DNA of 57,205 bases, counting the filler, from Jimgerdemannia flammicorona (Eukaryota): assembly GCA_003990765.1 (NCBI GenBank). It is 2 parts of 2 records of this genome, joined end to end, with 100 filler letters (N's around TTAATTAATTAA, not from the genome) between each part and the next. Parts side by side here need not be neighbours in the genome. Positions count along the whole stretch, not along the records: positions 1 to 28,562 come from RBNJ01000552.1; 1 more part is not named here. The stretch is one strand, 5' to 3'. The notes beneath the pieces are model-generated. The model had not been told where the DNA came from, searched no databases, and was given only the letters and a program-made list of their open reading frames with translations. Every line of letters begins with the position of its first letter. Within the stretch, counting starts at the first letter, position 1. Shown piece by piece: positions 1-30,258 of the stretch. The translations under genes and the position numbers were made by a program.

Positions 1-64
1 TTTATAGTCACGCCGACTTCTCCATTTATTACTAGTCTATTGATAATTACATGCACCCCTCGCA

Positions 65-3000
65 CTACCCAATCCCCACAGGGGGGTCCCCCCCCACACC
101 CTCCCATATAAGGATGACTCTCCCATCCATTACCCTCATTCTCCCCCTGCTCCTCCAGCACATTTTCTCCACCAATTGATGCCTCTAACCACTCCATGGA
201 CTCCAGCCATGCCACCAGCCAGTCATTATATCCTCCATCAACCTCTGCCACCGCAGAACCCATGCCCCCAAACTCAAGCTCCTCCCATCTTTGAAAACAA
301 ACAACCAGTGACTGGCCAACCCCACCCATACTGCCAAAACCCACCCCAAGGTGAGCCATTCATTTCCAACCCCCCCTATCAATCTATCCCTCAAATCCTC
401 CCACTGACCCCACTCACTATCTCCCCTACATGCTACACCAAGTTGCTCACCAACTGCCAACCAAAAGTCACTCAGCACCTCACATTCCCCCAGCCAATGT
501 TCAGGCATCTGCACATAACCTCCCTCCTGTCCTACTTTGTGGCACTCCTCACAGTCAAAGCTCCCTCCTTCGACAAGGTGCCCTGATCAGAAGTTGAGCA
601 TAACATTTCTCCTTAGCATTCACCACCATACCACCCAATACTTTGGCGGCATCCAACATTGCACTCTATCACTCCACACCCAAATATGTACCACTACAGT
701 CCCACTCCTCGCCAATACCTGCTAGTTGCCAGCTGCTGGGCCATAGATCCTGGCCCGGTCCCCTCTGGCACTCCACTCCATTGCTAATATCAAATCCATA
801 AGGGGAACACCCCCCAACAGTACTTGGTCCCATCTCCACATAGCTGGGTCCCAAGGCTCCTCTCCCTCATTCCCTCACCATCGCACTCCAATATGGTGAG
901 CACCATCTACCACTCTCCACCAGAAGCCTTTGAATTGTATCCTTCCAATGTTCTGAAGTCTGACCAAGGACAGTAGATCTCCTGTAGAGCCTCTTGGTGA
1001 TGACCTCATCTCCCAGACCTTCTGCATCAGGGGAACCCAGCTACCCCCACACAACTCTAACACCCTCTTCAGCCACCATGCATGTAAGCAAAATAGCCGC
1101 TTCGGGAAGTCAACCAGCCCAAGGCCCCCTCTAACCACTGGTAGAGACAAAACCTCCCAACTGATTTGACTTCGTTTTCCAGCCCAGATCCACCCCTTGG
1201 CCAGTTTCATTAACCTCTTCACCACCCAGGCCAGAAAGTCCAGGTCATATGTCAAATACCACAACTTCGGAAGCCAGTAGGTGTTCAGAATTGAGACTCA
1301 CCCCATCAAGGACAGATGACAGCCACCTCAACTCTGCAAGGCCTTCCCCCAGATTGTAATTCTCTGCTCCCACCAGAGTCTCGGAAGGACTGACCCATAG
1401 ACTGACAGATATATACCCAAGTACCGCACTACCTCCCCCACTGGGACAATTGTTCCAATGATGTCCCCTCCCACTAGTCTATTACCCAACACCATTGTCT
1501 CACACTTGTGCCAATTGAGCTGAGCCCCAGAGTGGACCTCGTACTATTCCACTGTCTTCTTGAGCTCCACAACATCCTCAATCAATCCCAGACTGACCAC
1601 TATGTCATCTGCAAAGGCCCCAACTTGCCACCCAATACCATAGATGGAAAGTCTGACTATTTTCCTTCGAATCCTATCCATCAGCGGCTCCAAGGATAGA
1701 GCATACAAAATGGGAGATAGAGGGTCACCCTGAGGTACTCCCCTACCCAGGGGAAAAGCCACCCCTCTGTGTCCATTGCAAATAAGGGCAGCCCTGCTCC
1801 CTTCCAGTAGACTGATCATCACTTTCCTGAACTGAGGGTGTACACCAATTCTGTCCAGTACCCTTGCCAACCAGGCTTGTCAAACATGGTTATATGCCTT
1901 TTCCTGATCCAGGAAGACCAGTTGACCATCCAGTCTACATGTCCATGCCCCCTCAATAACCCCATGCACCCAAGCTATACCATCCCTAATAAGCCAACCT
2001 CCTATAAAGCCATGCTGCTCCTCGCCCAGGACCTGCTGGGCCACGCTCTGCAATCTAGCAACTACCACCTTAGTGACCAACTTTCTGTCCATATCCAGCA
2101 GCATAATTGGCCTCCAGTTCTTCCAGTCCTCCCTCCTCCCTTTGTTCTTAAAAATCAATATCACCAGCCCAAGATCCTGCTCCCCCACCCATCTCCCAGA
2201 CTATAGTATCAGATTGCATAATACCGTCAACTCTCCCAGTATTCCAGGAACTCCCACCATCTTCTTCCAGAAGTCCCAGAGCAGACCATCCTCTCCTGGT
2301 ACTGTGCCCAAAGTGGTCATGGCCAGTATCTGGTGGACCTACTCCTCCTGAACTGGTGACACCAAGTCACCCAGTCCTTCTACTTGCAGTGGGTGCCAGT
2401 CCTCCAGAGCATGGTCAATGGTGGCATCATCTGCCCCATCCTCCTCCTCACTCCAAAGTCCACTCCAGCACTCCTTCAGCACTCCGAGAATGTCTTGTAT
2501 ACCATGTACTAGCAAACCATCAGGTGCCTCTACTCCTTCCCATCTCTGCTTCACCCTCCTCACCCAAAGGGCCCTTGTAAGATACTCCGAAGGCCTTTCT
2601 CCTTCCTCCTGCCCCTGCCATCATAACCTTGCCATCAGGCCCTGCACTTGTGCCTCCTCCTCATCTCGCAGCACCTGTTGTAGTTCCCCAATTTCCAATT
2701 TCACCTGCCTTACTCACCAGTCCTCCCCCCCCTCTCGCACCACCAGATCAGCCCAATCCTCCAAAAGCCTAGCCAATCTAGCAGAAGCCCATCTCCCCTT
2801 TCTTCTCCTCTGACCTCCAACCACTTTGCCAGCCTCACTCCAGTAGACCCTGGCCGCATCTTTCAACCTCAACCACCTGGCTCCGACTGGAGCACCCTCC
2901 TGTATCCAGCCCTCCACCTTCTGCCAAATTTCTATCACCCACTTATCCCACAGCATCTTATCAGCTAGCAAAGAGGAATTGAGGCACCAATGTCCAGGCC

Positions 3001-3724
3001 CATCCCCACTCCCCCCAATATGTCCCTGCCCTAACAAACCCCAATGATCCGACCATGGACACCACTCAACCTCCAGTGACTTCCACACATCGAGACCCCA
3101 GCAGCTTGCTGTCAAAATCCAGTCAATTCTTATCTCCAGGCCTTTTGTCCAATGTGTGTATACCCTCCTGTCACCCTAAATCCCCCTACCAGCATCCATC
3201 AGAGCACTCAACCTTTTCACCTCCTCCCAAGCCTCCAGCCCTCCACTCCTACCCTCAGCCCCCCGCCCTCTGTCGGTTCTATCCACCAACACATCTCTGA
3301 CCATATTAAAGTCCCCACCAAGCAAGTCTATGCCTGCCTCTGCGAGGACTCCACTCTCCCTGAGGCCCTTCACCCAATCTACATGCTCAATCCTCACAGC
3401 AGGGTAATAGCAGGAACCCACCATGGTTGGCTCCCAGCCTGCTCATATCCATTCTCCCCAAACCAGCCTGTCACCCCAATTCCTCACATCCTGGATCTCC
3501 CCTCTACCCCTCCAAACCAGAATCCCAACCTTCCCCATCCAAACTGCCTCCCCTCCCCATTCCTTCGTCCATTCTAACCCTTCCTAGTCATCCTCACATC
3601 TGACATCCTGCAAAAGAAAGAGATCAGCCTCCAATCCCTTTAGCTAAGTAAAGATATTCCAGCACTGAAAAGACCCCCGTAGCCCATTCACATTCAAAGA
3701 AAAAATGTTAGTTGTACTATTCAT
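65..3724 (-). pseudogene. LINE ORF2 (AP endonuclease, reverse transcriptase, C-terminal Cys/His motif), broken by stops
   Basis: MNSTTNIFSLNVNGLRG start, GGDFN and WSDH (APE); WRPIMLL, LDQEKAY, GVPQGDPLSP, AFADD (RT); GGLGLVD; ends DPPVGIG*. Confidence 0.92.
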
Positions 3725-3755
3725 AAGGAAGATTATATAGTTTCAAATGAGTCCT

Positions 3756-5789
3756 CTACTGCTCCATATCCACTTCCTCCTGTGCCCTATCCAAGTTGTG
3801 CTCTGCAATAGCTTCTGCCTCCTCAGCCCTCTTAGCCTCCAATTCAGCCAGGATCTCAGCCATCTCCCCATCCTCCTTTTCCTCAAACTCCTCACAATAC
3901 TCTAAGCAAGCCTCTTGCCAGAGCTACAGTCCATGCCGCTTAGCCCAACAGTGGACAGCCCACTCACCCACCACAACTGCCAGAGCAGCCTCCCTCTCCT
4001 TATCGACCTCATACCCCTCCTCCTCCAAGTATACCACCAGAATTTCTACCTTCAACACTGCCACCACTCCATCGCCCTGCAGGATTCTTACCCAATGTTC
4101 ATCGCTTATCACTCAGAGGTTGACTTCCCCCAGCTCCTCCGCTGCCAAGTTGTTCATCATCTGGCACACCCAGAGCAAATTCCCCACCTCCTTCCCTCCT
4201 GGGGTCGCTGGCCTCCCTCCATCCAACATTGTAGTATCTACTCCAACACTTGCCAACTCATTCCATCCCTCCTCTGGGACATCCATCAATTCCTCCTCTC
4301 CAGTTGCCTCAACCAATCCCCCCTTCTCCACATTTGGGACTCCAAAGTATACCTGCTGAGCACTGCACATCAACACATCCTCCACCACCCTACCTCTTGC
4401 CACTGGTCCCCTTCTGATAAGGGGGGAGGGTGAAGGTGAATTCTCCCAGGTTTCATCCCAAACCTCAAATGTGCCATCCTTATATGGAGTCTTGCTTGGC
4501 ACCTTCTCGGCCTCCTCCAGACCCCCCTCCTCATTCCCTCTACTACTAGCAGCCCAGACACTGGCCTCAGCATCTCCAGCAGTTACACTACCTCCTACCT
4601 TCCTCTTCACCTCCACCCCCATTTTCTCCAACAACTCCCTCTGCCTTCTGCACCCTTGGGACCTCTCTCACACCTCCTTGTTGATGCAGACTCGCTTCTC
4701 TCCAACCACCTCAAGATGCGTCGACTCCTCGAATACCTTCCATGCCTTCGCCTTCCTCTCTACCACCCCACTCAACTCCTCCAGTGCTTCCAACAAATCC
4801 TCCTCCTCCTTCTCACTCCCCTTCACTCTCATCACCTTGCACAAGAAAGCCCCCCATACCATCACTGAGGGCCAGTCCTGAGCCTTCCCATTAGCCTCCC
4901 TCCCTGCCAACCAAATCCTGATATCAACATCCCCAGTCTGGAGGGAGGTTCTTTCCCACACTCTGAACCCAATATTGACCATCTCTCCATACTCCGCCAT
5001 GACCTTCTCAACTCTCTTCCTTGTCTCTACAGTAGTAACAGTGGGAACTCCTTTCACCAGAAGCTACACTACTCTCAGGTCCCACCTCAGGCATCTCACC
5101 ATTGGTACGCACACCTCACCCACTTTCATCCCAGCCATCAAAGCCTCCTCCAATGGCCCAACCTCCTCAAATCCCACCTCCACCCCTTCTAGGCCCTTCA
5201 GGAACTTAACAGATACTGCACCTCTCATCTGCTTCATGATCAGCCCCAGAACCATTTTTGCCATCACCACCAAGCCCTGGAATCACATTGTGACTACAAA
5301 TTCTGAGATCGACTTCTTGAGTAATGGGGCCACCGCCAGTCCCATTACACCATCTGCCAGATCCCCGGACCTTGTGCCCTTCCCACTGCTCGGCCCACCA
5401 TCAGCAGTCCCATCTAGATTTTTTTCCAGATCACCTGTCACACCCCCATCAGCAGTCTCCACCTCAGCTGCTACCCCCCCAGCTCCACCCCTATGGCCCT
5501 CCAGAGAGGCACCCCCATGAGGCTGCTGCCATGTAGCCCTCACCGGCACCTTCTTCCACCTCAGCCAGCTCTCCAGTCCAGCTCCCTGCTGACCTCCCTT
5601 CACCTTCTCCACAAAGCTCACTCTACCAGACCCTTGACCTCCAACTCTGCCCTCTCCTCCACTGCATCCTCCCGCCAACAGGCCCCTCATACTTCCCTCC
5701 AAGCCTGGGCCTCTCTCCACTTGCTGCCAATCGAATGCTCCAGGGCCACCCTGCCCAGTACACACCTCAGGATGCTCATTGGTTGCCAT
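3756..5789 (-). pseudogene. LINE ORF1 (RRM-like region plus acidic/coiled C-terminus), broken by stops
   Basis: Fragments are homologous to the open ORF1 at 27387. The TAG-AGG stop context is conserved with copy 2. Confidence 0.85.
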
Positions 5790-5870
5790 GATACTAGTAG
5801 CTTATCTCCAGAAACTGTATCGAAAGTGTTGCCAAAAGGTTGTGTAACCTGAATGTTACCGGAGAAAGGC

Positions 5871-6221
5871 TCGTTGACTGTTGAGATTGATTGCTTTACA
5901 CTGTTCAGCAAGTTTTTTTCACTGTTGTGGTGATGATTGAATTGTAACAGTCAATTTGTATAACTTTGAAATAATGTTAGAGCTCTTGTTAGTTTTACTC
6001 CAATCACCAAATAGTTGCATGAGATAATCTTGAGCAGCAAGATTCAGAACATGGGCTTGACACCATATATAATTGTTATTAGTGTCAAAGATTACATTTT
6101 CTTATTGTAGTTTGGTTGCCAAAATGTGGAGAAATGTGATATTGTTGGAGGTGTTGTCTGTTGTGATGGTCAATATCTATATTTCAAAATTTTAATATAT
6201 AGAAAATAATTAATAATTAAA

Positions 6222-6271
<50 letters not shown>

Positions 6272-9625: not shown

Positions 9626-9886
9626 AATGAGGGGGCTCACTCGAGACCACAGGTCAATGAATGCAGGAAGGTCTTGGGCGTATAGCGCCCAAAATGTTTC
9701 AACGCTGTTGTTTGTAAGGTGTTTCTAAATCAGGTGTTTCTAAATCAGGCATAGTCTTTCCTTTTTGGTACTAGCACGGCATGCGCATTACTTCTATAGG
9801 TAATTCTACCATTCACCCAACATTACTTCGTACACGCTTTACACTTATGCTTTTGTGCTTCCGTACATTCGTATGTATTTCATTAC
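9626..9886 (+). repeat. Split direct repeat A1
   Basis: Near-identical to 14829-15076 (AATGAGGGGGCTC...TTTCATTAC); contains the hairpin GGGCG-TATAG-CGCCC. Confidence 0.93.
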
Positions 9887-9892
9887 ATTACC

Positions 9893-11344
9893 ATGGTCCT
9901 CTCTGCAAATTCCTGCCTTCTGTGTCGATACGACCCTTCCTATACATAGAAGGGCCAACATGACCTGGGCTCTGCCGCCTGCTCTTTCCGCTCGGATGTT
10001 AATTTCATCGAGCATGTGCTCCGCTTTCTGCAAGACGACCTGGAATCTGATAGCGAGAACCCCAATGTTGCTATCCTTGTGGATTATCTCGCCACCCTCC
10101 CTGATCACTCTACTTCCGCACCCCACCGAATCACGCGTCTATCGGCGCGTGCCGCATCCAAGGCTCCCGCTAGCACTACGGCAGCCAGACCAGTCTTTTT
10201 CAGCACACCGGCCTCTGATGTTTCCATCGAAGCTAGCGTTGCTCAGCTCCAAGAGCATGCATCCACGCAAGACCGTCGGTTCGACGAACTTTTTCAGCTT
10301 TTACGCTCTCGCCCTGACATCGTACCTTCAGCGGCACCGGCTAGTGCAGTTCCTGCCGTTTCTGGTCAGGATGCGTCTCCTATCATCAATCAAGCCTTTA
10401 TCGATCGCGCTACTGCCTCTCTTTCGGCGGTTCTCGCATCCCCATCCTCATCCCAGCCCTTACCGACTATCCCTTTGGTTCGGTCCACTGGCATTCACGG
10501 CCCTGCCGGTAATCCCCAGGGTGAGTCTATCCCTATACCTCCTTCTGTCGTTTCTGCCCATACCATTATCCGAGGCATCAATCTCTCTTTAAAATACGCC
10601 CATGTTAATCAACGGCTGTTGGCCGCGGTCGTCGACAATTCATTCACCGCCATGTCACTCGGCCATTTCTTAGAGCGAAACGTTGTTTCTATCGGTGGTC
10701 TTCCTGATGCTCAATTCATTGAAACGTTTGACAAATCGGGTGCTCGGATCATTCTTCGAAAGCCGCCATCCCTTATCAAAGATCTTCCGGAAGTCCCTGC
10801 TTTCCTCGCTGCCCTGCTTACGTATTTCAGCATTCTTCATGACACGTACCCGGGCCTCACCGATCCTACTCCATTCTTTTCATACGCCGCAGATTTTATT
10901 TTACTATCAACATCGTCGTATTGATCCGCGCTTCTTGATTATCATGTCTCCTATCACACAAAATGACTGGTGGAGATCGCGAACAATGGTGTTTCTTTGG
11001 TATGGTGCGAGCACTGGGCCCGGCGCGACCCCGACCTCTTTATGGTCCTTAGTCTGCATCAACGTCCGCGAACTCTGACCTCTACATCTAATCCGCTCAA
11101 GCCCTTCAAGTCTCGCAATGTACAACGGGGGCTACGCCTTACTGATGGCTCCTCCGCTCCATCTACCGAGAACGCCTCTCAATGGTCTACTTGTCGGGCA
11201 TACAACGGCGTTCTATTCGATGGATCACCCATGAAGGATCCTGGGTGCAACAGAAAAAAATGCCCTTATGCACATTCCTGTTCTCGCTGCAATAGTGATC
11301 ATCCGTGGTATCGATGCTCCCACAATCCATCGGCTCACCCCTAG
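9893..11344 (+). pseudogene. gag: Ngaro gag-like ORF with C-terminal Cys/His finger; two internal stops
   Basis: ATG 9893 is in frame with ORFs 10016-10924 and 10970-11344. Motif CRAYN..CNRKKCPYAHSCSRCNSDHPWYRC. Confidence 0.82.
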
Positions 11345-13186
11345 GAACTCGCTCCTGTTTATTCTTTACACATACCCCCGGCCGCTCCAAATACCCTACT
11401 CCATCGCCTATTTACCACCCCTCTTAACGAAGCTGCTCAAGACATTCTACATCGTTTTCCTCTTCCTTCTTCCGCTCTTCGCCCTGCCGCGTGGGCGCAT
11501 GAGCTCCAGTTGTATCCTGACCCGCGGGTAGCTCAGGCTGCCATCGCCGCTATTACTCAAGGCACCCTTCTCAGCTTTGATGGGCCTCGTCGGCGTCTGC
11601 TGTCCTACAATCATCACTCCGCTCTCGACCACCCGGAAGCGATCACACCTGACATCAAGCGGGAAGTCGCTGCCGGTAGAATTTGTGGCCTGTTCTCATC
11701 CCCTCCGTTCGAATGCTTTCGCTCATCTCCTCTCGGCGCCGTCGCGAAGAAGAATTCTAATAGCGCATGGTGTCGTATTCACGACCTTTCTTGGCCCCGT
11801 CACGGCGATTCGGTGAATGCTGGCATAGATACCGATGCCTTCCGGCTCTCTTACATTAAGTTCGACGAGGCTTTGGACTTGGTTTGTCGTTTTGGCCAGG
11901 GATGTCTTCTATCGAAGGTCGACCTCGCCGATGCATATCATCATATTCTCATCCATCCTACAGATTGGGAGTTGCTGGGTTTCGAGTGGTCAGGGCAGTT
12001 TTATTTCGATCGGTTCGCTCCTTTTGGCGCATCCTCATCACCATTTCTTTTCAACCTTTTGGCGGAACTTCTCGCATGGATCGCCCACCATCATGACATA
12101 TGCGTGCTCATCCACTACGTCGACGATTTTCTCCTTGTTTTGCCGCCATTCCGGCCGTTTGCCCTCTCCGACCTACGTTTACTTCTTGCCATCTGTCGTC
12201 ATCTCGGCTGGTCGATTCAAGAGCCCAAGGTCGAAGGCCCGATAACGTCACTCGTCTTTCTGGGCATTGAATTGGATACAATGGCTATAGAAGTCCGCCT
12301 GCCTCTCGGCAAGCTTGATACGTTGCTCGCCACTCTTCAGCAGTGGCTATCGTGCACATTATGTATATGCCCTCAACTGCAGTCTCTTATTGGTTCCTTG
12401 GCATTTGCCTGTAAAATCATTCTGCCAGGCCGCCCATTCCTGCGGCGGATTATCGACCTTCTTTCCGGCAACACCTTATTCCATATCTCACTGAATGAGG
12501 AATTCTACGCCGACATTCGTTGGTGGCTCGAATTCCTACCCCACTGAAATGGTATTTCCGTTATACATCCGGTGGCATGGTTCCATGAGCCTGATGCACA
12601 ATTATGGACAGACTCTAGCAGGATCCAAGGCTTTGGTGCACATTTCAATAGCGAATGGTTTTCCGCTCCCTGGCCTCCCGATATAGCCTCACGCGACATT
12701 CAGTTCAAGGAACTTTACGCCATGGTCACTGCCGCTGCTACCTGGGGCGCTCAATGGCGTTTTCACCATATATTGCTTCATTCTGATAATCAGGCGGTCA
12801 TTGCTATTATCAACTCGGGCTCTTCACGCAACCCTCTTCTGCTGGAACTTCTCCACCAGCTCTATTTTCAAATGGTGCATCATGCTTTTCAACTTCGCGC
12901 CATATTCATCTCGAAATCCGATAATGGCATTGCTGATGCTTTATCCCACGCTGATATTCCTCGTTTCCGTCGTCTTGCCCCTTACGCTCAGACGCTCCCG
13001 ACCGCGATTGGTATCGTTTGCATTCCGTGCTTCCACCCGTCGTTGCCTTCTTTTTGTGATTCAGACTGGCAAAATCAACGCGCCGCTCATACTCTTCGGG
13101 AAAACGCAGCTTCCTCCAATTCTGCAATCTCCATGGCGGTAATCATGCCTCCGGCAGGCCTTTGCCTGCGTCCGAACTGGTGCTAA
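11345..13186 (+). pseudogene. pol: Ngaro pol: reverse transcriptase plus RNase H; one TGA at 12545
   Basis: SPLGAVAKK, RIHDLS, KVDLADAY, PFGASSSP, HYVDDFL, FLGIELD (RT); WTDSS, KELYA, SDNQAV, ADALS (RNase H). Confidence 0.93.
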
Positions 13187-14025
13187 TGCGGTGGGTCTGT
13201 AGCTTGGCCTTGCGACAGCTTCAACCATCCACAATCAAATGTTACCTCTCAGCCGTTCGTTCTCTACACATCGACTCCGGCTTTGCTGATCCATTCATCT
13301 GTCTTCACCAACTTCCCCGAGTGATGCGTGGCGTGAAGCGGTGGCTAGGTGTATGCCCAACTCGACCTCGGCTTCCTATCACACTCGGTATTCTTCGCAG
13401 TCTTATCAGTCTGCTTCAGCTATCTGATTATGACGATCTGCATCTTGCGACCGCAATGTCGCTTGCATATGTCGGTTTTCTTCGCTCTGGCGAATTTACG
13501 TGGGACAGGTCTTTCGATCCCGTTTCCCAGCTGTCCCGCGGCTCTGTGGTCTTTCAACCTAGCATTGCCGACCCCACCCATATTACGCTCACCCTGCTGG
13601 CCTCTAAAACAGACCCGTTTCGCCAGGATGCATTACTTTTTATCACCAAAACGGATCCCGCCGCGCCATGTGTTGTATCCTTACTTCGCCTTCTTTACCT
13701 GGTGCACCCAGCCCCACCTGACACCCCTCTGTTCCGGCGTTCCGCGAATCGATCATTCTCTCGGGCCTATCTCGTTAGTCGTCTTCGCGTGTTACTTCCA
13801 CGGATTGGTCTGAATCCGCTTCTTTACGCCGGGCATAGTTTTCAGATTGGTGCAACATCCGATGCCGCTGCGGCCGGTTTATCTGATTATGAGATTCAGA
13901 TATTGGGTCGGTGGGAGAGCATGGCATTTAAAGGCTATATTCACATGCCTATTTCTCGCATTCTCCATCTTCGGGCTTCATTAACTCATAATACTTGTTC
14001 TGCTACTTATATTACTTGTGGTTAA
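13021..14025 (+). pseudogene. Tyrosine recombinase overlapping the pol 3' end (start approximate)
   Basis: GFLRSGE, SKTDPF, GHSFQIGA, LGRWES..Y. In-frame TGA at 13057, and the HxxR arginine is changed to Gln. Confidence 0.92.
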
Positions 14026-14050
14026 CGATTTCCCGTTCCTCTTTTTCTAC

Positions 14051-14414
14051 CGCATAGCCCACGACACCAGCTTATTCCGGGTCCCACGCGGCGCGCGACA
14101 CCAGCCTTTACCTCTCCTCATCGGCCTTACATCACCACGCGGCTCGCGATACCAGCCTTTAATCCACCCACCTCAGCCTCTTGCCACCGCATAGTTCGCG
14201 ATACCAACCTTTTCCGACATTGCGTGGCTCGCGACACCAGCCCTCCTTCTTTTCGTTATCGCACAGCTCGCGACACCAGCCTACTCGGACCCCCGTGCAA
14301 CTCGCGACACCAGTTCTATCCCTCGATCGCTGGGCTCGTTAAATCAGCTTCTTGGCTTTCGCACGATTTGCGACACCTGCCCTCGGTTTTAACCGCGCGG
14401 CTCGCGACACCAGC
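14051..14414 (+). repeat. Array of ten 21-bp repeats (consensus CGCRCGGCTCGCGACACCAGC) with 11-31 bp spacers
   Basis: Copies start at 14051, 14085, 14136, 14188, 14221, 14260, 14294, 14328 (divergent), 14360 and 14394. Confidence 0.9.
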
Positions 14415-14595
14415 CATATCATCGACATTGGGCGCGGCCTTTCTATTAAGCCTTCGGCGCCTTTCTATCTTCTACTCTGCTCACATTTCCACATCCATAA
14501 CCCCCTTTTTACTTCATTTGGGCCGAGTTCTTCCTTTCGGCGCTGCCAACTCACACCGCCACACATCATCATTCCGCACATTTTACATATAACAT

Positions 14596-14829
14596 TTGGG
14601 CCAGTCTTTTATACCGTGTGTTTCCACCCAAATACAGAACAATCGATCATTTATTTGAGGTTTCTTTCCTAGGATTTCGGGGTGATGCATGGTCATTTCG
14701 GTGACACGGGGTTATTGGTGTTTTATCATGAAGATTGACATCACGTGAGCGTAGTATAGTTGATATTATGCAAAACGTAGTATAGTTACGCCTCCCTAGC
14801 GTAGATCGACATTACGGCAAAAACATTGA
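14596..14829 (+). repeat. Split direct repeat B1
   Basis: 234 bp, near-identical to 15111-15344. Confidence 0.93.
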
Positions 14830-15076
14830 ATGAGGGGGCTCGCTCGAGACCACAGGTCAATGAATGCAGGAAGGTCTTGGGCGTATAGCGCCCAAAATGT
14901 TTCAACGCCGTTGTTTGTCTAAGGCGTGTCTAAATCAGGCGTAGTCTTTCCTTTTTTGGTACTAGCGCGGTAGGCGCATTACTTTTATATGTAATTCTAC
15001 CATTCACCCAACATTCTTAGTACGCGCTTTACACTTATGCTTTTGCGCTTCCGTACATTCGTACGCATTTCATTAC
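14829..15076 (+). repeat. Split direct repeat A2
   Basis: Matches A1 and directly abuts B1. Confidence 0.93.
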
Positions 15077-15110
15077 CACCCACCTCACCCTACATATATA
15101 TACATAGTGG

Positions 15111-15344
15111 TTGGGCCGGTCTTTTATACCGTGTGTTTCCACCCAAATACAGAACAATCGATCATTTATTTGAGGTTTCTTTCCTAGGATTTCGGGGTGA
15201 TGCATGGTCATTTTGGTGACACGGGGTTATTGGTGTTTTATCACGAAGATTGACATCACGTGAGCGTAGCGTAGTTGACATTATGCAATACGTAGTATAG
15301 TTACGCCTCCCTAGCGTAGATCGACATTACGGCAAAAACATTGA
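15111..15344 (+). repeat. Split direct repeat B2 (element right end)
   Basis: 234 bp, matches B1. Confidence 0.93.
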
Positions 15345-20500: not shown

Positions 20501-21101
20501 TCAAGAAATCCTTACCACCCTTGAAAGCAAAGCCAAATACTACACCACCCTGGATCTGTTCTCAGGCTCCATCAGATTGGTCTCACTCAAGATACCAGTG
20601 AGAAATCAGCCTTCATCACACCTGATGCCACCTATATCTATCTGCGAATGCCATTTGGAATGTACAATGCCTCAGCAAGTTTCCAGCAAATGATGAACAG
20701 AATCTTCAGCAATGAGATTGGAAAATGGCTCTTTGTCTATAGTGATGATATGATCATCTTCAGTAACACTGCATGGGAACATATCAATTACTTTGGCTAG
20801 CCCTCAAGAAGCTCAAGGAGCATGGCCTTTACATCAAGCCCAAGAAATGCAAGTTTGCAGCTAAGAAAATCACCTACCTAGGACACCTCATCAACCAGAC
20901 TGGAATCCACACAGACCCTATGAAGATTGAGACTGTTGTAGCCTATCTGAGATCCAGAACAACCACAGAAGTCCATGCCTTCCTTGGACTGGCTAGCTAC
21001 TATAGAAGATTCATCAAAGGATACTCCAATATTGCAGCACCTATGTATCTATGAGCTACTGAAAAAGGAAACCAAATTTGAATGGACCAAGAAGTACCAA
21101 G
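17546..21101 (+). pseudogene. Gypsy gag-pol (gag with CCHC knuckle, aspartic protease, dUTPase, RT)
   Basis: PSKFYG, (Y)FRCGEEGHYIKNC, AIIDTGA, SPWVSPIV, RLCIDY.KLN, LDLFSG, MPFG, VYSDD, YLGH, FLGLASYYRRFI. Confidence 0.9.
19632..20045 (+). pseudogene. dut: Trimeric dUTPase domain within Gypsy pol
   Basis: All five motifs present: GMDL, RSSLA, GVIDPDYIGE, DRIGQ, RGEQGFGST. Confidence 0.92.
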
Positions 21102-21103
21102 CT

Positions 21104-21167
<64 letters not shown>

Positions 21168-21229
21168 GTCACTTGGACTCTTCCTTTATTATGCCCATCT
21201 ATCCCATATAAGTACAGTGAACCCTCCCC

Positions 21230-24200
21230 CTATCCGATCCCCCTAGGGGGGCCCCCCCTCCTTACTCCTTCTCAATGAAAGACTACTCTGTCTAATACAA
21301 TCTCCACCCTCCCACCACTCTGTTCATATATCCTTGTCATCAAACCTCAATGTTGCCCCCCTGAAGGACCCCAACCTATCCACCATCCAGTCATCAGATC
21401 CCCCAACAGCTCCTCCCACCTTAAAACCTTCTCCTGCAGTCTCACCTGCCACCCCTCCTCAAACACAAAAAGCCAATGTTATGCCAATCCCACCCAAATG
21501 GCTAACACCCACCCAACAGTGAGCCAACTATCACCCACCCCCCCCCACTAGCCAAGATCTCAAGTCCTCCCAGTGGTCTCCCTCTCCTGCTGGCCTACAC
21601 TCCACACCCAGTCTATTCTCTATTTCTGTCCAAAAGTCCCCCAAAACCTCACACTCCCCCAGCCAATGTTCTGGCATCTGCACAATACCCCCAGCTTGCC
21701 CTCTATTGTAACACTCCTCACAATCAAAACAGACACCATCCACCAGATGCCCAGTGTGGAAATTCAACATGATATTCCTCCACAGCATTCACCACCACAC
21801 CACCAAGAACTTGAGAGGACGCCACCACTGTACCTCAGCACTCCAAGACCAGACACCTGCCCAGTCCCACTCCTTACCAATCACTACCACCTGCCAACCA
21901 CTCAGCCAAAGATCCTGGCCAAGACCCTGCTGACACTCCACTCCATCCCCAATATCAAATGTGGTAAGTTGAGCACCCCCCAGGAGCAGTCTATCCCATC
22001 GCCACATACCAGGTCCCCACATCCCCTCCCCCTCACTGCCTTGCCAGCACAGACCAATTTGGTGTGCCCCATCGACCACTTCCCACCAAAAGCCCTTAAA
22101 CTGCAGCTGCTGAATTCCATTGAGTCCTACCAAAGAGGGTAGTTCTCCTGAGGACCCTCAGGGGGAGGTTCTCATCTCCCACACCTTCTGCAGCAGAGGT
22201 ACCCAACCCCCTCATTGCAGTTCAGCCACTCTCTTCAACCACCAGGCTTGCAAGCAATGCAACTGCTTAGGGAAATCCACAAGGCCAAGACCTCCCCTTA
22301 CCACTGGTGTTGCAAGAGTATCCCAACTGATCAGGGACCTCCTCCCTGCCCAAATCCAATCCCTAGCCACCTTTGTCAGCCTCTTCACCACCCAAGCTGG
22401 GAAGTCTAGGTGGTAGGCTACATACCACAGCTGGGGGAACCAGTATACATTCAGAATTGACACCCACCCTGCTAGAGAGATATGGCGGCCTCCCCAACCT
22501 TGAAGGGCCTCCCCCCAAATAGCCACCCTACTCTCCCACCACTCCTGTGGCAAGACAGAACCATACACAGAGAGGAAGATGCTCAGATACTATACCACCC
22601 CACCAGTAGGGACAATTGTACCAATGATGTCCCCACCCACCAGCCTATTCCCTAGCACCATAGTCTCACACTTATACCAGTTGAGCTTTGCCCCAGAGTG
22701 AGCCTCATACCATTCCACTGTCTCCTTAAGTGCCTAGACATCTGCCACAGACCCAAGTCCAACCACCATATCATCTGCAAAGACTCCCACCTTCCACACT
22801 ATTCCATAAATAGAGAGCCCTACTACCTTCTGGCGAATCCTATCCAACAATGGTTCTAATGAAAGGGCATAGAGAATAGGGGACAGGGGGTCCCCCTGAG
22901 GAACTCCTCTTTACAAGAAAAATGCCAGACCATGGTGACCATTATACATCAGTGCTGCCTGACTGCCTTCTAGCAGATTCAACATAGAAGCCCAAAATCC
23001 TGGGGGAACCCCAATATGATCCAACACCTTGCCCAACCAAACCTGCCAGACCCAGTCATAGGCCTTCTTCTGGTCCAAGAAGACCAACCTTCCATCCAGT
23101 CCACAAGTCTGGGCCCCTTCAATGACACCATGCACTCATTCAGTTCCATCTCTTATAAGTCTGCCTCCAACAAAGCCCCACTGCTCCTCCCCCAGCATCT
23201 GTTGGGCAACGTTCTGCAGCCTTGCAACAACCACCTTAGTCACCATCTTTCTGTCCATATCCAGAAGCATAATTGGTCTCCAGTTCTTCCAGTCTTCCCT
23301 CCTCCCCTTGTCTTTGTACAACAAAGCCACCAGCCCAAGGTCCTGCTCTCCAACCCACTCACCACTCTGAAGAACATGATCACAGAGAGCAGTCATCTCA
23401 CCCAAAATGCCAGGGACCTTAACCATCTTCTTCCAAAAGTCCCATGGTAATCCATCCTCCCCTGGTGCTGTCCCAGGTTTAGTTGCTGTGAGGACACTCT
23501 GGACCTCCTCGCCTTGCACTGGTAAGGCCAAGTCACCCAGTCCAGCCACTTGTAGTGGCCTCCATTCCCCTAATGTATTTTCAATTGCTGCCTCATCAGC
23601 ACCCCCTTCTTCCTCACTTCACAAACCCTACCATCTCTCTTTCAACACCCCTAAGATTTGTTGCATGCCATGTACCATGTCCCCATCAGCATCTAGGACT
23701 CCATCCCACCAATGTCTCACCCTCCTAGCTTTAAGCAGACATGATAAATATCTAGTAGGCTGCTCACTCTCCTCAAGCCCCTGCCACCTTAGCCTAGCAG
23801 CCATACCTTGCATATGAGCCTCCTCCTCTTCTCTCAACACCTGTTGCAGTTTCATTATCTCCAATTTAACCTGTACTATCCTCCAATCCTCCACCCAATC
23901 AGAAGTAAGCAGATCTGCCCAATCCATTTGCAGTCTCCTCAACCTGTTGGAAGCACACCCCATGCACTTCCTCCTTCGTCTCCCAGCTTCTCTCCCAGCC
24001 CCTCCCCAATAGACCCTCACAGCCTCTTTCAATCTCATCCAACAGACACCTACTGACAAACCCTCACCCCCCCAGCTAAAAACTTTTACCTGAATGTCCT
24101 CCACCTACAAATCCCACAACCCCTTCTCAGCCAGTAGGGAGGAGTTAAGGCGCCAATGTCCAGGTCCATCTCCACTCTCCCCAAACTGCCGACGTCCCAA

Positions 24201-24879
24201 CAGTCTCCAGTGATCAGACCATGAGCACCACTCCACCTCCAATGCCTTCCAAACATCAGACCCCCAGCATTCTGCCATCAGAATCCAGTCAATCCTTATA
24301 CCCAAGCCATTCACCCAATGTGTGTAGACCCTGGTGTTACCTCATTGTGTTCTGACTATATCCCTTTAAGGAGCTCAGCTGCTCCATCTCCTCCCATGCA
24401 TCCAGACCTCCACTTCTCCCTCCTGCACTCCTCCCACCATCAGTTCTGTCCAGATGCTGATCCCAAACCATATTAAAGTCTCCCCTGAGCACATCAACCC
24501 CTTCCTCCAAGAGAATACCCTCCTCCAGCAGCTCCTTAATCTATGCAATCCTCTTGCCCCTAACCACAGGGCAGTAACAAGAGCCAATCTTCACAGACTC
24601 CCACCCCAGCCAATGCCAATCTCCCATCACCCCAGCTCCCAATACTCCCCAAGTCTCCTCTACCCTTCCTCACCAGAATCACCACTTTTCCAAACCAAGC
24701 AGTAGCCCCCCCCATTCCCAAGTCCACTCTGCCTGATCATCCTCATCCTCACACCAATCATCCTGAAGTAAAAAGAGATTGGTCTCCAATTCCTTGAGCC
24801 AAGTAAAAATGTTCTTATATCACCCAGATCCCCTCAGCCCATTCACATTCAAAGAGAAAATATTGGTTGTACTATTCAT
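21230..24879 (-). pseudogene. LINE copy 2 ORF2 (APE plus RT)
   Basis: MNSTTNIFSLNVNGL start, WSDH, APGEDGLP, WRPIMLL, PQGDPLSP, FADD; ends GPPRGIG*. Confidence 0.9.
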
Positions 24880-24908
24880 AAGAAAATGTTATATCATGTT
24901 CCCACCCT

Positions 24909-26921
24909 CTACAATTCCGCATTCCACTCCTCCTGCAACAAATCCAAGTCATGTTCAGCAGCTAGTTCCCTTTTACCAGCTTCCTGTGCCTCCAGCCCTC
25001 CCAGAAGTTCTACCATCACCCCATCTTCTCACTCCTCAAAGTCCTCATGGTATTCCAGACAGGCCTCCTGCCAGAACCGCAGACCATACCACTCTACCCA
25101 ACAGTATGCTGCCTGCTCACCAGTGACTACCACCAGCTTGGCCTTCCTCACTGCACCAACCTCATATCCCTCCTCCTTCAGGAAAATCTCCCCCTTCAGT
25201 GTCTCCACCACTCCCTCACCATGCAGAATCTGTGCCCAATACTCCTCAGGTATTACCCACAGGTCCACTTCCCCCAAAGTCTCAGCTGCAAGGTTGTCCA
25301 TCACCTTGCTCATCCACAGTAAGTTTCCCACCTCCTTCCCTCCTGGAGTCTCTGGTCTTCCTATGTCCAACATCATGGTGTCAGCCCCTATACTGGCAGC
25401 CTCATCCCACTCATCCTCAGAGACATCCACCAGCTCATCCTTGCCAACTGCCACCACCTGACCCCCTTTTTCCACATCAGGGACCCCAAAGTAGACTTGC
25501 CGGGCCCCCTTCATCAGTATATCCTCTGTTGTCTGTCTCTTTCCAGCTAGGCCCCTTCTGATAAGAGGGGGGGGACTGGCCTCCAGTTCCTGCTCCCAGA
25601 CATCAAAAGTGCCATCAGTATAGGGGTCCTTGCCCAGCATCTTCACAGCTCCTTCCTTGCCTACCTCTACCTCTCCAACCCCTTTACCCACCCAAACACT
25701 GGCTTCAATGCCCCCAGCCACTTCAGCTCCAACAGCCTTCTTCTTTGCCTCTATCTCCATCTCGCCAGTAGCTCCCCCTGCCTCCTATGCCTCTGTGCCC
25801 ACTCCCACTGCTTCCTGTCAGTATGGACATACTTCCCATCCACAACCACCAGATGCATTGATGCCTCGTATATCTTCCTTCTCTTCACAGCTCTACTCAA
25901 CTCCTCCAGCGCCTCCAACAAGTCCTCCTCCTCCTCTTAACTCCCCTTCACCCTCGCCACCTTACAGATGAATACCCCCACATCAGCACAGAAGGCCAGT
26001 CACTCATCTTCCCCATGGCCTCCTTGCCTGCCAGCCAAATCCTGACATCTATGTCACCTATCCTGATCATTGTACCCTCCTATACCTAAAAGCCGATGTC
26101 CACCACATCACCATACTCTATCATCACCTCCTCTACCCTCCTCCTAGTCTCCTCCTTAGTTACTGTGGGCACCCCCCTCACCAGAACTGCACCACCCTGG
26201 AGTCTCATCATAAGTACCACACCATGGAGACCACCTCCTCCCCAACTACTACTCTAGTCTTCAGTGTCTTGTCTGGTGGGCCTGCCTCCTCAAAGCCCAC
26301 CTCAACCCCCTCCAGATCCTTCAAGAACTTCACTGAGGCTGCCCCAGCCACCTGCTTCGAAACAAGCCCCAGAACCATCCTCACCATCACTGCCAAGCCC
26401 TGGAAGCACAAGGTTGCTACAAACTCCGAAATTGACTTCTTGAGCAATGGGGCCACTGCCAGTCCTGTTACACCATCTGCCAGGTCCCCCTTCCTCATTG
26501 GGAACCCCTGTCCCCCCTGACCATCAGCTATCACATCTCTTTTTTTTTCCTCCTGATTCACCATCACACCACCATCAGCAGTCCCACCACTACCCCCAGC
26601 AGCTACTCCACCTCCACCACTTCCCACTACCAAAGGCCCAGCTCCCCCAGTACTCCCAACCTTCTTCTTCCCCTTCCCACCTGTCTTTCCACCATGATCC
26701 CCAACGGGCCAATCTCCTGACCTCAGCATGTCCACAAAGCTCCTCCCCTGCTGCCCTCCAGCCCCCCCACCAGTGCCACTTCCACTACCCAAGCTGTCCT
26801 GCCCATCTGGGCCACCAAAAGACCCTATCCCCAGTCTATACCCTCTTCCGACATGCTGCCAGTCGAAGGCCCCAGGTCCACCCAACCTAGTATGCATGTC
26901 AGCTTGCTTGCTGGTTGACAT
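24909..26921 (-). pseudogene. LINE copy 2 ORF1
   Basis: GGPGAFDWQ and DLADGVTGLAVAPLLKKSISEF are shared with copies 1 and 3. Confidence 0.85.
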
Positions 26922-27003
26922 TGTCTTAATATCTTTCTCCAATAAATGACTCGAAAGTGTGTTATAAAAGTGTGTGTAACGTGAATTGTATTGGAGAAAG
27001 ATG

Positions 27004-27304
27004 AGTACCAAGAAACCTTCAATGAACTCAAAACCAGGTTGATGCAAGTACCTATCCTCAGAAGACCAGATTGGAACCTAGAATTCATCCTGCAGACAGA
27101 TGCAAGAGCTGTAGGACTTAGAGCAGTCCTAGCTCAGAAGAAAGATGGACATGAATATGTCATCTCCTATGCAAGTGGAGGTACCTGTGGAGCAGAACAG
27201 AACTATGAGTCATGCAAGCTTGAATGCTTAGCAGTAGTTTGGGCAGTAGACAATTTCCACTACCACCTAGCTGGAAACACTTCACTATTGAAACAGATCA
27301 TTCC
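27004..27304 (+). pseudogene. Gypsy RNase H fragment
   Basis: PILRRPDW..FILQTDA..AVLAQ..ISYAS..AEQNY..LECLAVVWAV..FTIETDHS. Confidence 0.9.
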
Positions 27305-28562
27305 CATCTTTCTCTGGTAACATTCAGGTTACACAAGACTTAGACAACACTTTCTACAACGTTTTTGGTGTCCAACGACTAACAACATGGACAGCAACGA
27401 TCGATCTGGTGAGCGTACTGGCCAGGGGGGTGGCGGCGCCTTTGGCTGGCAGCAGGTGGGGAGGAGGGGAGATGGTTTGGGGATGCCAGGGGCCTCGATG
27501 GCTAGCTGGGGCCCCAGCGGCGGAGGGAGGGGAGGTCTGAGACAGAGAGGAGGGGAGAGGACGACCTTTGCTGACAAGGTCAGAATGGGGGCGATGGCTT
27601 CTGGGCTGGATAGTTGGCTGGGCCTGGGGAAGGCGTCGATGGCTACTACCGGGGGTCAAGGAGGTGCACCCCAGGGTGCTTCTGGTGGTAGGGAAGAGGC
27701 TGGAGTAGGGGCTGGAGATGTGATGGTTGATGGAGCTGTGACTGGGGATCTGGCAAAAAATCCAGATGTGATGGCAGTTGGCAATTTGGGACTTGGAGTG
27801 GGCACGAGGCCTGGGGACCTGGCGGATGGGGTGACGGGCATGGTGTCGGCCCCGTTACTCAAGAAATCGAGGTCCGAATTTGCGGTCACAATGTGCTTCC
27901 AGGGCTTGGCAGTGACGGCAAGGATGATTTTGAGGCTGGTGGCACAGGAGGCTAGGGGAGCAGCATCGGTGAAGTTTTTGAGGGGGAAGGAAGGGGTTGA
28001 AGTGGGGTTCGAGAAAGAAGATGCCTTGTTGGCAGCCATGGAAAAGGGGGTGATGGTTGGCGGGGTTGTGGTCCCTATGGCTCGGTGTATGCGCTGGGAC
28101 CCCCGGGTGGTGCAGTTGACAGTGTTGGACCTCCCTACGGTGTCGAAGGAAAGGACCAGGGAGTTGGTTGTAGAGGCGATTAAGGAGTATGGCGAGATTG
28201 TGGACATGGGGTTCAAGGTCTGGGAGGGCATGGAGCTTAGAACTGGAGACGTCGATGTCAGGGTGAGACTGGCTGGAAAGGAGAATACGGGGAAGTCGAG
28301 GGACTGGCCAGCAGCGCTGAGGTGGGGACAAGTAGAGTGTAAGGTCGCTAGGGTGAAGGGGACTCAGGAGGAGGAGGAGGACTTGCTGGAAGTGCTGGAG
28401 GACCTGGAAGGGGCTGTTGCAAGGAGGAGATTAGCCTGGAAGGAGTTCGAGGCCAGGACGGTGGTGGGAGAGGTGGATGGGAAGAGGGTTCGGATGGAGA
28501 AAGGGGCCTGGGAGAAGATGCAGGGGAGGAGGATTCAGTAGGAGTTGTTGGCAAAGTTGGAC
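27305..28562 (+). mobile_element. LINE copy 3 (5' end and ORF1), youngest copy, runs into the assembly gap
   Basis: Starts CATCTTTCTC like copy 2, interrupts Gypsy RNase H directly after TDHS, and retains CpGs. Confidence 0.9.
27387..28541 (+). CDS. LINE ORF1 N-terminal 384 codons (TAG at 28539 is probably premature)
   Basis: Open frame homologous to ORF1 of copies 1 and 2, whose homology continues past this stop. Confidence 0.8.
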   Translation: MDSNDRSGERTGQGGGGAFGWQQVGRRGDGLGMPGASMASWGPSGGGRGGLRQRGGERTTFADKVRMGAMASGLDSWLGLGKASMATTGGQGGAPQGASGGREEAGVGAGDVMVDGAVTGDLAKNPDVMAVGNLGLGVGTRPGDLADGVTGMVSAPLLKKSRSEFAVTMCFQGLAVTARMILRLVAQEARGAASVKFLRGKEGVEVGFEKEDALLAAMEKGVMVGGVVVPMARCMRWDPRVVQLTVLDLPTVSKERTRELVVEAIKEYGEIVDMGFKVWEGMELRTGDVDVRVRLAGKENTGKSRDWPAALRWGQVECKVARVKGTQEEEEDLLEVLEDLEGAVARRRLAWKEFEARTVVGEVDGKRVRMEKGAWEKMQGRRIQ

Positions 28563-28662
28563 NNNNNNNNNNNNNNNNNNNNNNNNNNNNNNNNNNNNNN
28601 NNNNNNTTAATTAATTAANNNNNNNNNNNNNNNNNNNNNNNNNNNNNNNNNNNNNNNNNNNN
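28563..28662. other. 100-bp assembly gap with TTAATTAATTAA six-frame stop linker
   Basis: N44-TTAATTAATTAA-N44. Confidence 0.97.
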
Positions 28663-28963
28663 TGATAGCTTCAAAGATCAGGGTCTTTGGGCCAGGCAAA
28701 GGGGTAGAGCGGCGGGAGGTCTGGTTGGTTCGGCGAATAGGAGGCATTGTGTGGTGGGTACTTGGTTCTTTGGTGCTGATCCTTGAGGCGGAGTAGGGTT
28801 CTTTAAATAATGTGGTCTTCATTTTGGCTTGGGTCATCTTGTCTTCTTTTGGTGAAATCACTTGATGGATTGGGCTGGTCACCAGTTATCGCACCATAAT
28901 GTCATCTGATCTTGTGGTCACAGGGTACTCTGAATTTGGATAGGGTCAATTGTAGACGTCACA
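28663..28963 (-). mobile_element. Probable LTR terminus of another retrotransposon, truncated by the gap
   Basis: The minus strand begins TGTGACGTC at a sharp boundary with very AT-rich DNA, and an ORF starts at 28747 (MPPIRRTNQTSRRS). Confidence 0.45.
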
Positions 28964-30258
28964 ATATATAAAGATTAAATTAAATAAATAAAATCTTTTT
29001 AGTTTAATAATATAATTCTATTTAACTTATAGTCTCTTTTTAAAATTAATATATCTATTATATCAGATATTCTATTAGATTTAAAATTTAGTATTTTTTT
29101 TTTATTTTTTATTTTTTATTTTTTATTATATATTTATATTTATTAAACATTTTACTAAATTAATAATATATTATTTTCTATATATAACTTTTAATTTTTA
29201 TTATCTATTTTTATTAAATATTTTATTAGATCAATAATATATTATTTCTCTATATTTAATTTACTTATAACTTAATAGTTTTTATTATTTATTTTAGTTA
29301 AATATTTTATATTTCTTATTGCTTTAAGTATAGTTGAATATACTACTTATAAATGTCTTAATACTTATTTTTTAGTCTTAATATATAGTAATTTCTGACT
29401 TAATTTCTTATTTTAAGTATTTCTTAATTTATATAAATAATATAATTTATTAAATATTTGATATTTATATTATTTAATTTAACTATTTCTTATAGATTCT
29501 TAATATATTTATTTATTTTTCAGTAGTTTATAATGTGTATTATTTAGATTATATATTTTTAAGTCTTAGTTTCTTAATCTTGAATTTATTATATAATAAA
29601 AATAGTTTATATTTTTAATTTCTAAGCTTTATACTCTAGATAGATATTTTTATTTCTAAAATCTTCTAATCTCTTGAAGTCTTTATATTTTACTAACAAA
29701 GTGAACTAAGATTTATTTACTCTAATCTGTAGAGTTATTTATATAAGTTAGGCTAAGTATAAGATGATAATTCTCACTAAGTAAGACTAACTAATAGAAA
29801 CAAAATAAAGTTATTACTATATAGTAGCAATTTGGTGATAGTAGATTGACAAGAGTGAAGCTAATACTAATAAAGATAATTTTTAAGCAATTCTATCAAA
29901 GTATAAGATAGAATATTTATAGAATTAGGCTAAACTAAATATAGTTAAGCTATAATACTTAGCAAGGAACACTATTAGAGCCTAAGCCTTATGTATGTCG
30001 GGTTCTCCGAACTGAGCATTCGAGATAGAAATATTCCTCATGCATGCATTCACCCCAATACACATATATACAAACATATATTTATCTAATTGATTTTACT
30101 TATATACGGGTGGCAGTTAAGAGAGGGAACGAAGGAAGATGGGGATTTAATCCTTGTGCAACCGTCACACTGTTAATAGATCCGACCTTTTCAGCCAGAT
30201 TACACAGCCCCATTATACGTTGACTGCCCCGTCATCAAAGAAGAACCATTACAAAACC

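Follow-up and report, generated by a model that had tools for sequence, protein, structure and literature searches.

What could a ten-fold series of short repeats in the tail of a retrotransposon be for? In the stretch of Jimgerdemannia flammicorona DNA analysed here (57,205 nucleotides with filler; hereafter the window), ten copies of a short motif lie between the tyrosine recombinase (YR) and the split repeats of a Ngaro retrotransposon, separated by spacers. A preliminary description of the locus proposed recombinase-binding sites, a Gag packaging signal or a processed small-RNA array tied to the reverse transcriptase and recombinase.

The element and its array

The host element is an unremarkable member of the Ngaro superfamily, its split direct repeats standing in the order A1-[ORFs]-B1 A2 B2 (Table 1). 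The context first described for the array was supported, including reverse transcriptase and RNase H (RT/RH), YR and the split direct repeats, and RT/RH, YR and split direct repeats make up the superfamily layout in the accessible parts of the literature (PMC3783388; PMC8547959; PMC13465315). Stop codons break gag and pol, and the window copy is therefore dead; one stop falls at 12545-12547 in the RT/RNase H frame, and the RNase H frame overlaps that of YR. The probable gag region is so named from its position in the Ngaro layout. Its ORFs matched no Pfam family, and its last piece (10967-11344) ends in a Cys/His-rich stretch for which an Atlas search gave no match at 0.9; the look-alikes, all below 0.9, include one cluster with zf-CCCH in 10% of members, which is a lead only. 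The named relatives of YR among the 447 found are fungal. The window YR deviates at a nearly invariant arginine column of the alignment, and its direct Pfam matches are weak. Lack of a DNA adenine methyltransferase sets Ngaro apart from DIRS and PAT, and no such domain was detected in the six ORFs scanned.

Table 1. Coordinates of the Ngaro element, of selected array units and of the domain found in external relatives (window positions unless a locus is named)
Feature	Position	Strand	Remarks
Split direct repeat A1 (5' terminus)	9626..9886	+	88.6% identity with A2 over 262 nt
Probable gag region	9950..11344	+	ORFs broken by stop codons
Reverse transcriptase and RNase H	11345..13186	+	RVT_1 E 1.2e-11; RVT_3 E 5e-4, under curated cut-off
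Tyrosine recombinase (YR)	13060..14025	+	447 relatives, many with PF00589; conserved columns align
Array, ten 21-22-nt units and fixed pyrimidine-rich spacers	14051..14415	+	
Unit 4, C8-G20 to U8-A20	14188..14209	+	Fixed in 30 young copies
Unit 7, two stem 2 G-C pairs to A-U	14294..14315	+	Fixed in 97-100% of 30 young copies
Unit 10, full example of proposed pseudoknot	14394..14415	+	
Split direct repeat B1	14596..14829	+	97% identity with B2 over 234 nt
Split direct repeat A2	14829..15076	+	Holds look-alike of motif core at 14842-14855
Split direct repeat B2 (3' terminus)	15111..15344	+	97% identity with B1
External domain, examples	L089:4903-5060, L119:2683-2840, L092:4614-4770		13 more external loci

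The ten 21-nt copies between the YR stop and B1 stood up to re-examination, with units starting at 14051, 14085, 14136, 14188, 14221, 14260, 14294, 14328, 14360 and 14394 and agreeing with the 21-mer at 15-21 of 21 positions. The periods (34, 51, 52, 33, 39, 34, 34, 32 and 34) and spacer lengths (13, 30, 31, 12, 18, 13, 13, 11 and 13 nt, six of the nine being 11-13 nt) were confirmed exactly. The array starts 25 nt past the YR stop and ends 181 nt short of B1. The functional unit probably extends to 22 nt rather than 21, since unit position 6 pairs with the first base of the spacer. The 14-nt core, with at most two mismatches, was matched seven times in the window, always in the array, compared with 0.08 on average, and never more than 1, in 100 shuffles. 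Tandem Repeats Finder did not report the array, and an Rfam scan (E up to 1; eight loci including the array locus) matched no family there, its one weak and unrelated match being in L089.

The spacers are pyrimidine-rich as described (117 of 154 positions). Their description as mostly unrelated needs a correction, in that pairs 1/6 and 2/3 exceeded shuffles (p 0.037 and 0.048; two of 36 pairs, uncorrected), although all pairs jointly did not (p 0.26). All ten units point one way and the periods keep no constant phase. Seven of the nine periods cannot be divided by three, which shifts the motif from frame to frame; the frame is not kept and indels occur within the array, in line with the earlier view that it is non-coding and conserved at the DNA or RNA level.

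Elsewhere in the window, 4.5 copies of a 176-nt tandem repeat (32397-33183) have a unit that looks like one exon plus intron of a leucine-rich-repeat gene. Strong GC skew of about -0.5 marks positions 1-6000 and 21001-29000, flipping to +0.47 near 27000-29000, and poly(T) runs at 6229 and 21107 adjoin such skewed stretches, which with their poly(T) are probably other retroelements.

Copies, subfamilies and other lineages

A search of the own genome with the array region, in which 40 of 75 candidates were scored, returned at least 35 full-length and four partial matches, and the array is thus present in sibling elements, which were compared over 30 copies. Ten units with nearly equal periods were seen in 25 of the 30 best siblings; three showed nine detected units and one doubled period (one unit under threshold), and two had lost one whole unit together with its spacer. 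In 28 of the 30, each of the ten positions is retained, and the spacers and their order are unchanged. The B1/A2 junction was likewise found at 37 places (40 of 244 candidates scored), every one adjoining an array match. The array is inherited together with the element.

Mean identity to the window copy is 91-98% per spacer and 79-94% for the repeats among siblings. The repeats are the less identical because they are CpG-rich, almost all changes being CpG transitions. Change rates within the family (repeats against spacers: 0.034 and 0.018 for non-CpG, 0.26 and 0.19 for CpG) reflect decay after insertion and are therefore useless for contrasting repeats with spacers. The spacer-target search covered one of the nine spacers and was confined to the own genome: a 22-nt segment taken from spacer 3 gave 33 matches, 33/33 inside sibling arrays. 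Since the spacers are fixed in order over 30 copies and spacer 3 had no match outside the family, a system of acquired spacers is unsupported.

From 126 recombinase matches, 40 more diverged loci were fetched. Five of them form an older subfamily that carries 10-12 units of the same motif, with spacers orthologous to those of the window. One unit is duplicated together with its spacer in a copy of this subfamily (L043), other copies are without one unit, and indels of 1, 2, 4 and 34 nt inside the array separate the young and older subfamilies. The duplication of a unit with its spacer and the gains and losses of whole units point to growth of the array by tandem duplication of unit plus spacer.

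Constraint was assessed between six young and five older copies by counting only gaps and changes between purine and pyrimidine classes, which lie beyond the reach of C>T and G>A decay. Such differences affected 3/210 repeat columns, 10/154 spacer columns and 20/181 columns of the 3' flank (Fisher p 0.019 for repeats against spacers and 5e-5 for repeats against 3' flank), with 14/105 columns in B1 and 9/91 upstream. The expectation that the motif is more conserved than its spacers is therefore borne out between two subfamilies. Unit-to-unit conversion or the easier alignment of repeats could also lower repeat divergence. The characterization of the array as unlike a minisatellite holds in that the motif is stricter than the spacers; it does not hold in that growth proceeds by duplication of unit plus spacer and that the spacers of two further lineages, F3 and F4, are still plainly homologous and form higher-order repeats.

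These lineages carry arrays of other motifs in the same place, with ten units and a 48/48/56 higher-order repeat in F3 and about 10-12 units in F4. The sister family F2, represented by 11 of the 40 loci, has 1-2 motif matches per locus at threshold and three recognisable motif copies in a 20-row alignment, and comprises at least 20 copies. A quick tree of 59 recombinases, whose rows include no named Ngaro reference elements, recovered F2, F3 and F4 as one group each at 98-100% and the window lineage F1 as one group at 65% only, and placed the 43 own-genome rows apart from the 16 external rows at 99%. As a separate observation, two F4 ends occur tail to tail in inverted orientation in L174/L180 and L066 (contig C2774).

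External relatives were drawn from 80 loci with 32-46% YR identity, ten of them too short for the array test. No family of five or more units was found in the 70 external loci of sufficient length, and the window motif was absent from the 76 external loci scanned. In 16 loci of an external YR clade, the YR stop is followed at once by a conserved domain some 160 nt long, with a duplicated CCTGCC helix arm, a long-range helix and double changes in 5/23 predicted pairs (16 sequences). No Rfam family (E up to 1) covered it in the three loci scanned. The interval between the YR stop and B1 is thus shown to hold a predicted RNA structure in relatives, in the form of a different covarying domain.

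The preliminary description had noted an 11/14 match to the motif core at 14842-14855. This match exists, and outside the array the element has none better; it lies 14 nt inside A, with a chance probability of 0.004 when the first 60 nt of A are considered and 0.30 over the entire element. When units were scored against the A start of their own lineage, z values were 0.2 in F1, 0.7 in F3 and 0.1-0.6 in F4, and the highest array/A values (2.5-3.0) arose between non-cognate pairs, in what is a rough test of ten units per lineage and nine A starts, on decayed copies with 30 shuffles each. The A start of F1 recurs in F2 and in two further families, yet these have few or no motif matches. Own-A matches are no better than shuffles in three lineages, and the idea of recombinase sites copied from terminus A is thus unsupported, no own-family preference being seen.

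Several features of the terminal repeats deserve mention in their own right. At the B1/A2 junction (14821-14856; also L038, L059 and L045), B ends in CATTGA and TCAATG lies about 30 nt into A; these hexamers are reverse complements, and folding them into a hairpin would require B and A to adjoin. An imperfect palindrome, different in F3, fills the 20 nt that separate them, and the junction hairpin is a possible folded single-strand substrate for the recombinase. B starts with TTTGGG, followed 30-70 nt on by CCCAAA, in all own-genome families seen (14596-14640; F2, F3 and F4), likely to be a conserved stem that marks the 5' edge of B. Another TTTGGGCC lies upstream of B1 at about 14517-14524. 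The 11-mer CCACCCACCTC occurs at 15076-15086, near the A2 end, and at 14164-14174 inside spacer 3, the latter by coincidence or capture; it is present in 52/215 loci, lying near the A2 end in F1 and F4 loci and in four external loci (cited loci: L034, L050, L053, L055, L066, L069, L072, L073, L081 and L082). Contigs of run X1, whose kind is uncertain, start at the A start or stop at the B2 end on window positions 14828-15344, with unrelated flanks; they cover parts of the terminal repeats, leave the array and ORFs uncovered, and may be other insertions or solo A-B remnants, so that they speak neither for nor against expression.

A candidate fold of the unit

Pairing within the unit was evaluated on the commonest base per unit over 30 copies, for 210 candidate 4-bp helices. 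Positions 1-4 with 10-13 (stem 1) ranked first, with 38/40 cells paired, and positions 6-9 with 19-22 (stem 2), which cross stem 1, ranked second with 34/40. The predicted fold has stems of 4 + 4 bp and loops of 1, 0 and 5 nt, loop 1 being position 5 and loop 3 positions 14-18, of which A14, A16 and C18 are invariant in the window units. H-type pseudoknots typically combine a short loop 1 with a loop 2 of 0 or 1 nt and a longer loop 3 that contains A. By these geometry rules the fold fits the plus strand only, as the loop lengths are swapped on the minus strand.

Stem 2 contains four compensatory cells, in unit 1 (6-22), unit 4 (8-20) and unit 7 (6-22 and 7-21). The older subfamily has A at position 7 and T at 21 of unit 7 in 5/5 copies. 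Its unit 4 has the ancestral pair C-G, with C in 5/5 and G in 4/5, and its last unit has C9 in 5/5 and G19 in 2/5, a double change at the fourth pair of stem 2. In F2, the first motif copy has C9-G19 in 8/20 rows with U-G and G-U beside it, a CA/TG mix as from decayed CpG; the second copy retains three stem 2 pairs and the third only two, with two mismatches.

In permutations counting Watson-Crick pairs, stem 2 by itself had p 0.024 and the two stems combined 0.005; with G-U allowed, the values were 0.087 and 0.026, respectively. A helix as good as stem 2 arose in 112/3000 column shuffles (0.037, with helix choice allowed for). For the ten window units alone, the covariation score was reached by 24/500 shuffles and percent paired by 51/500. 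Covariation of stem 1 alone was not significant (p 0.10-0.11). Stem 2 is mismatched in 5/10 units, with two mismatches in unit 9, and all compensatory changes are from G-C to A-U or the reverse, a class favoured by the dominant C>T and G>A decay. Thermodynamic folding gave z -0.31 for the whole array, no better than shuffles for a decayed copy and a model that leaves pseudoknots outside, and single units were more stable on the minus strand (mean -4.6 against -2.7 kcal/mol on the plus strand; 296 units). Units of F3 form a 4-bp hairpin (35/40 cells) with no second stem. In F4, a loose pattern caught 12 units, two of them probably spurious, for which the best helix pairs 35/48 cells with five compensatory changes. 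Taken as a model, a 22-nt H-type pseudoknot in each unit, or at least its first hairpin, is supported, short of demonstration; the covariation statistics are modest, and the structure was picked after looking at the data.

Explanations and known systems

The explanation to which we give about even chances is that the array would be a multiplied cis-acting signal read on the plus-strand RNA of the element. The motif would serve as an RNA signal within the transcript's 3' non-coding region and would owe its copy number to template slippage or strand transfer, and the pyrimidine-rich spacers would hold the folded units apart. An element-encoded protein may bind the folds; both the protein and the step it serves are our suggestions. 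Gag picking RNA for packaging would be the most likely binder, taking about half of the probability of the RNA-signal reading, and our second guess is a reverse transcriptase positioned near B1 for priming or strand transfer. Additional units would add avidity without being required. A packaging-type RNA signal, as suggested at the outset, remains the leading idea and gains some backing from covariation, and Gag as its reader is what we infer, in view of the Cys/His-rich end of the first ORF and the analogy with foot-and-mouth disease virus pseudoknots discussed below. The parallel stem-forming arrays of about ten units in F3 and F4 and the covarying domain at the corresponding place in distant relatives speak for an RNA signal; the spread of F2 to at least 20 copies with 2-3 motifs and the absence of the motif from the 76 external loci scanned speak against it.

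The array may instead be a by-product of reverse transcription, in which slippage or strand transfer in a tolerant 3' region generates repeats as in Ogre/Tat arrays, one or two ancestral copies matter at most, and recent duplication or conversion keeps the rest alike. This is a credible minority view. Whole units are gained and lost, giving 10-12 in the lineage, homologous spacers within higher-order repeats are seen in F3 and F4, spread has also occurred in families with 0-2 detected motifs, and the external loci long enough to test held no family of five or more units; such arrays are also called common in Tat/Ogre 3' UTRs in the part of PMC7004042 consulted. A mere by-product would, however, leave the stricter motif at orthologous positions next to its spacers, the compensatory changes of stem 2, the stable unit number of the young family (28/30 copies, hence not hypervariable) and the recurrence of about ten stem-forming units in each of three lineages to be accounted for. 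We consider it unlikely that the units act as double-stranded DNA, with inverted half-sites (4 bp, a 5-bp gap and 4 bp) bound by a dimeric host transcription factor or recombinase in an enhancer or accessory array near B1. The 4-5-4 dyad does occur in F1 and F3 units despite their different sequence, the motif is conserved, and its best match outside the array is the one just inside A (p 0.004 or 0.30, as above). Against this stand the lack of own-family matches to the A start in three lineages, the double and G-U-compatible changes of stem 2, which are unexpected of a duplex site, the single orientation without constant phase, and the CpG-richness and fast post-insertion decay of the dyad (26% of CpG cells changed).

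A CRISPR-like array, or one processed into small RNAs, in association with the RT and recombinase would explain the repeat-spacer appearance, and the units could form processing hairpins, but it is very improbable. Siblings agree in how many spacers they have, in their order and in their sequence, the older subfamily holds orthologous ones, the 22-nt segment from spacer 3 finds sibling arrays only, six of nine spacers are just 11-13 nt long, and the array locus matched no Rfam family. An array of acquired spacers is largely refuted by the fixed sibling spacers and the spacer 3 search. The chance that the motif encodes an in-frame peptide repeat (ARDTS), whether in a fourth ORF or in a lengthened recombinase, is close to nil: one plus-strand frame is indeed open over the array (14026-14592, 188 codons stop to stop), but this ORF has no Pfam match and most periods shift the motif out of frame. 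The frame-breaking indels of 1, 2, 4 and 34 nt, common to whole subfamilies, refute it.

A short, apparently covarying unit, lineage-specific within one genome, would offer a 22-nt RNA handle with natural cognate and non-cognate pairs. The broader proposal that Ngaro elements select their own RNA through lineage-specific arrays between the YR stop and B1, 22-nt pseudoknots here and plain or bulged hairpins in two lineages, is a tentative one that we rate as somewhat doubtful. If it holds, split-repeat YR elements would gain their first defined signal for packaging or priming, and the unit would be among the smallest pseudoknots occurring as a ten-fold array. If the array were a mere by-product, the Ogre-type 3' array phenomenon would extend to Ngaro, which is of minor interest. 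We found no description in the open literature of a packaging signal for YR retrotransposons, nor of an array or pseudoknot in a Ngaro tail there, subscription papers, Repbase reports and supplements lying outside the search.

Internal tandem arrays occur in two other split-repeat retroelements, TOC1 of Chlamydomonas and kangaroo-1 of Volvox, in which the units are longer and homogeneous, without a pattern of conserved motif and divergent spacers. Literature searches for the tandem repeats of TOC1 and kangaroo returned no confirming passage. In DIRS-1 of Dictyostelium, which belongs to the same order as Ngaro and has inverted terminal repeats and an internal complementary region in place of split direct repeats, a single-stranded cDNA intermediate is formed, an internal non-coding region is needed and the reverse-transcription primer is stated as unknown, according to the sections of PMC7192593 available, in which the word 'packaging' had no matches.

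In foot-and-mouth disease virus, small tandem pseudoknots beside pyrimidine-rich sequence originated by duplication and differ in number, and packaging requires at least one of them, as stated in the accessible portions of two reports (10.1101/2020.01.10.901801; PMC11734982). Those units measure about 48 nt and number two to four in the 5' UTR of an RNA virus, and we draw the parallel as one of working principle, claiming no sequence relation. Closer in position are the 3' UTR arrays of Ogre/Tat elements, as far as the consulted part of PMC7004042 describes them, which share with the present array the location downstream of the coding region, family-specific monomers and growth by unit duplication. 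Short family-specific units downstream of the last gene are thus found in both, but the Ogre/Tat host is a Ty3/gypsy Tat element and the host here a YR element of another retroelement order; the present array also differs in its stable unit number, a motif more conserved than its spacers, and stems with apparent covariation. The word 'tandem' is absent from the main texts of two accounts of the Ngaro superfamily (PMC3783388; PMC13465315). With that superfamily the window element shares RT/RH, YR and split repeats; it differs in the row of ten units that separates the YR stop from B1. The additions made here are the constraint on the motif, the crossed stems and the parallel hairpin arrays in other lineages.
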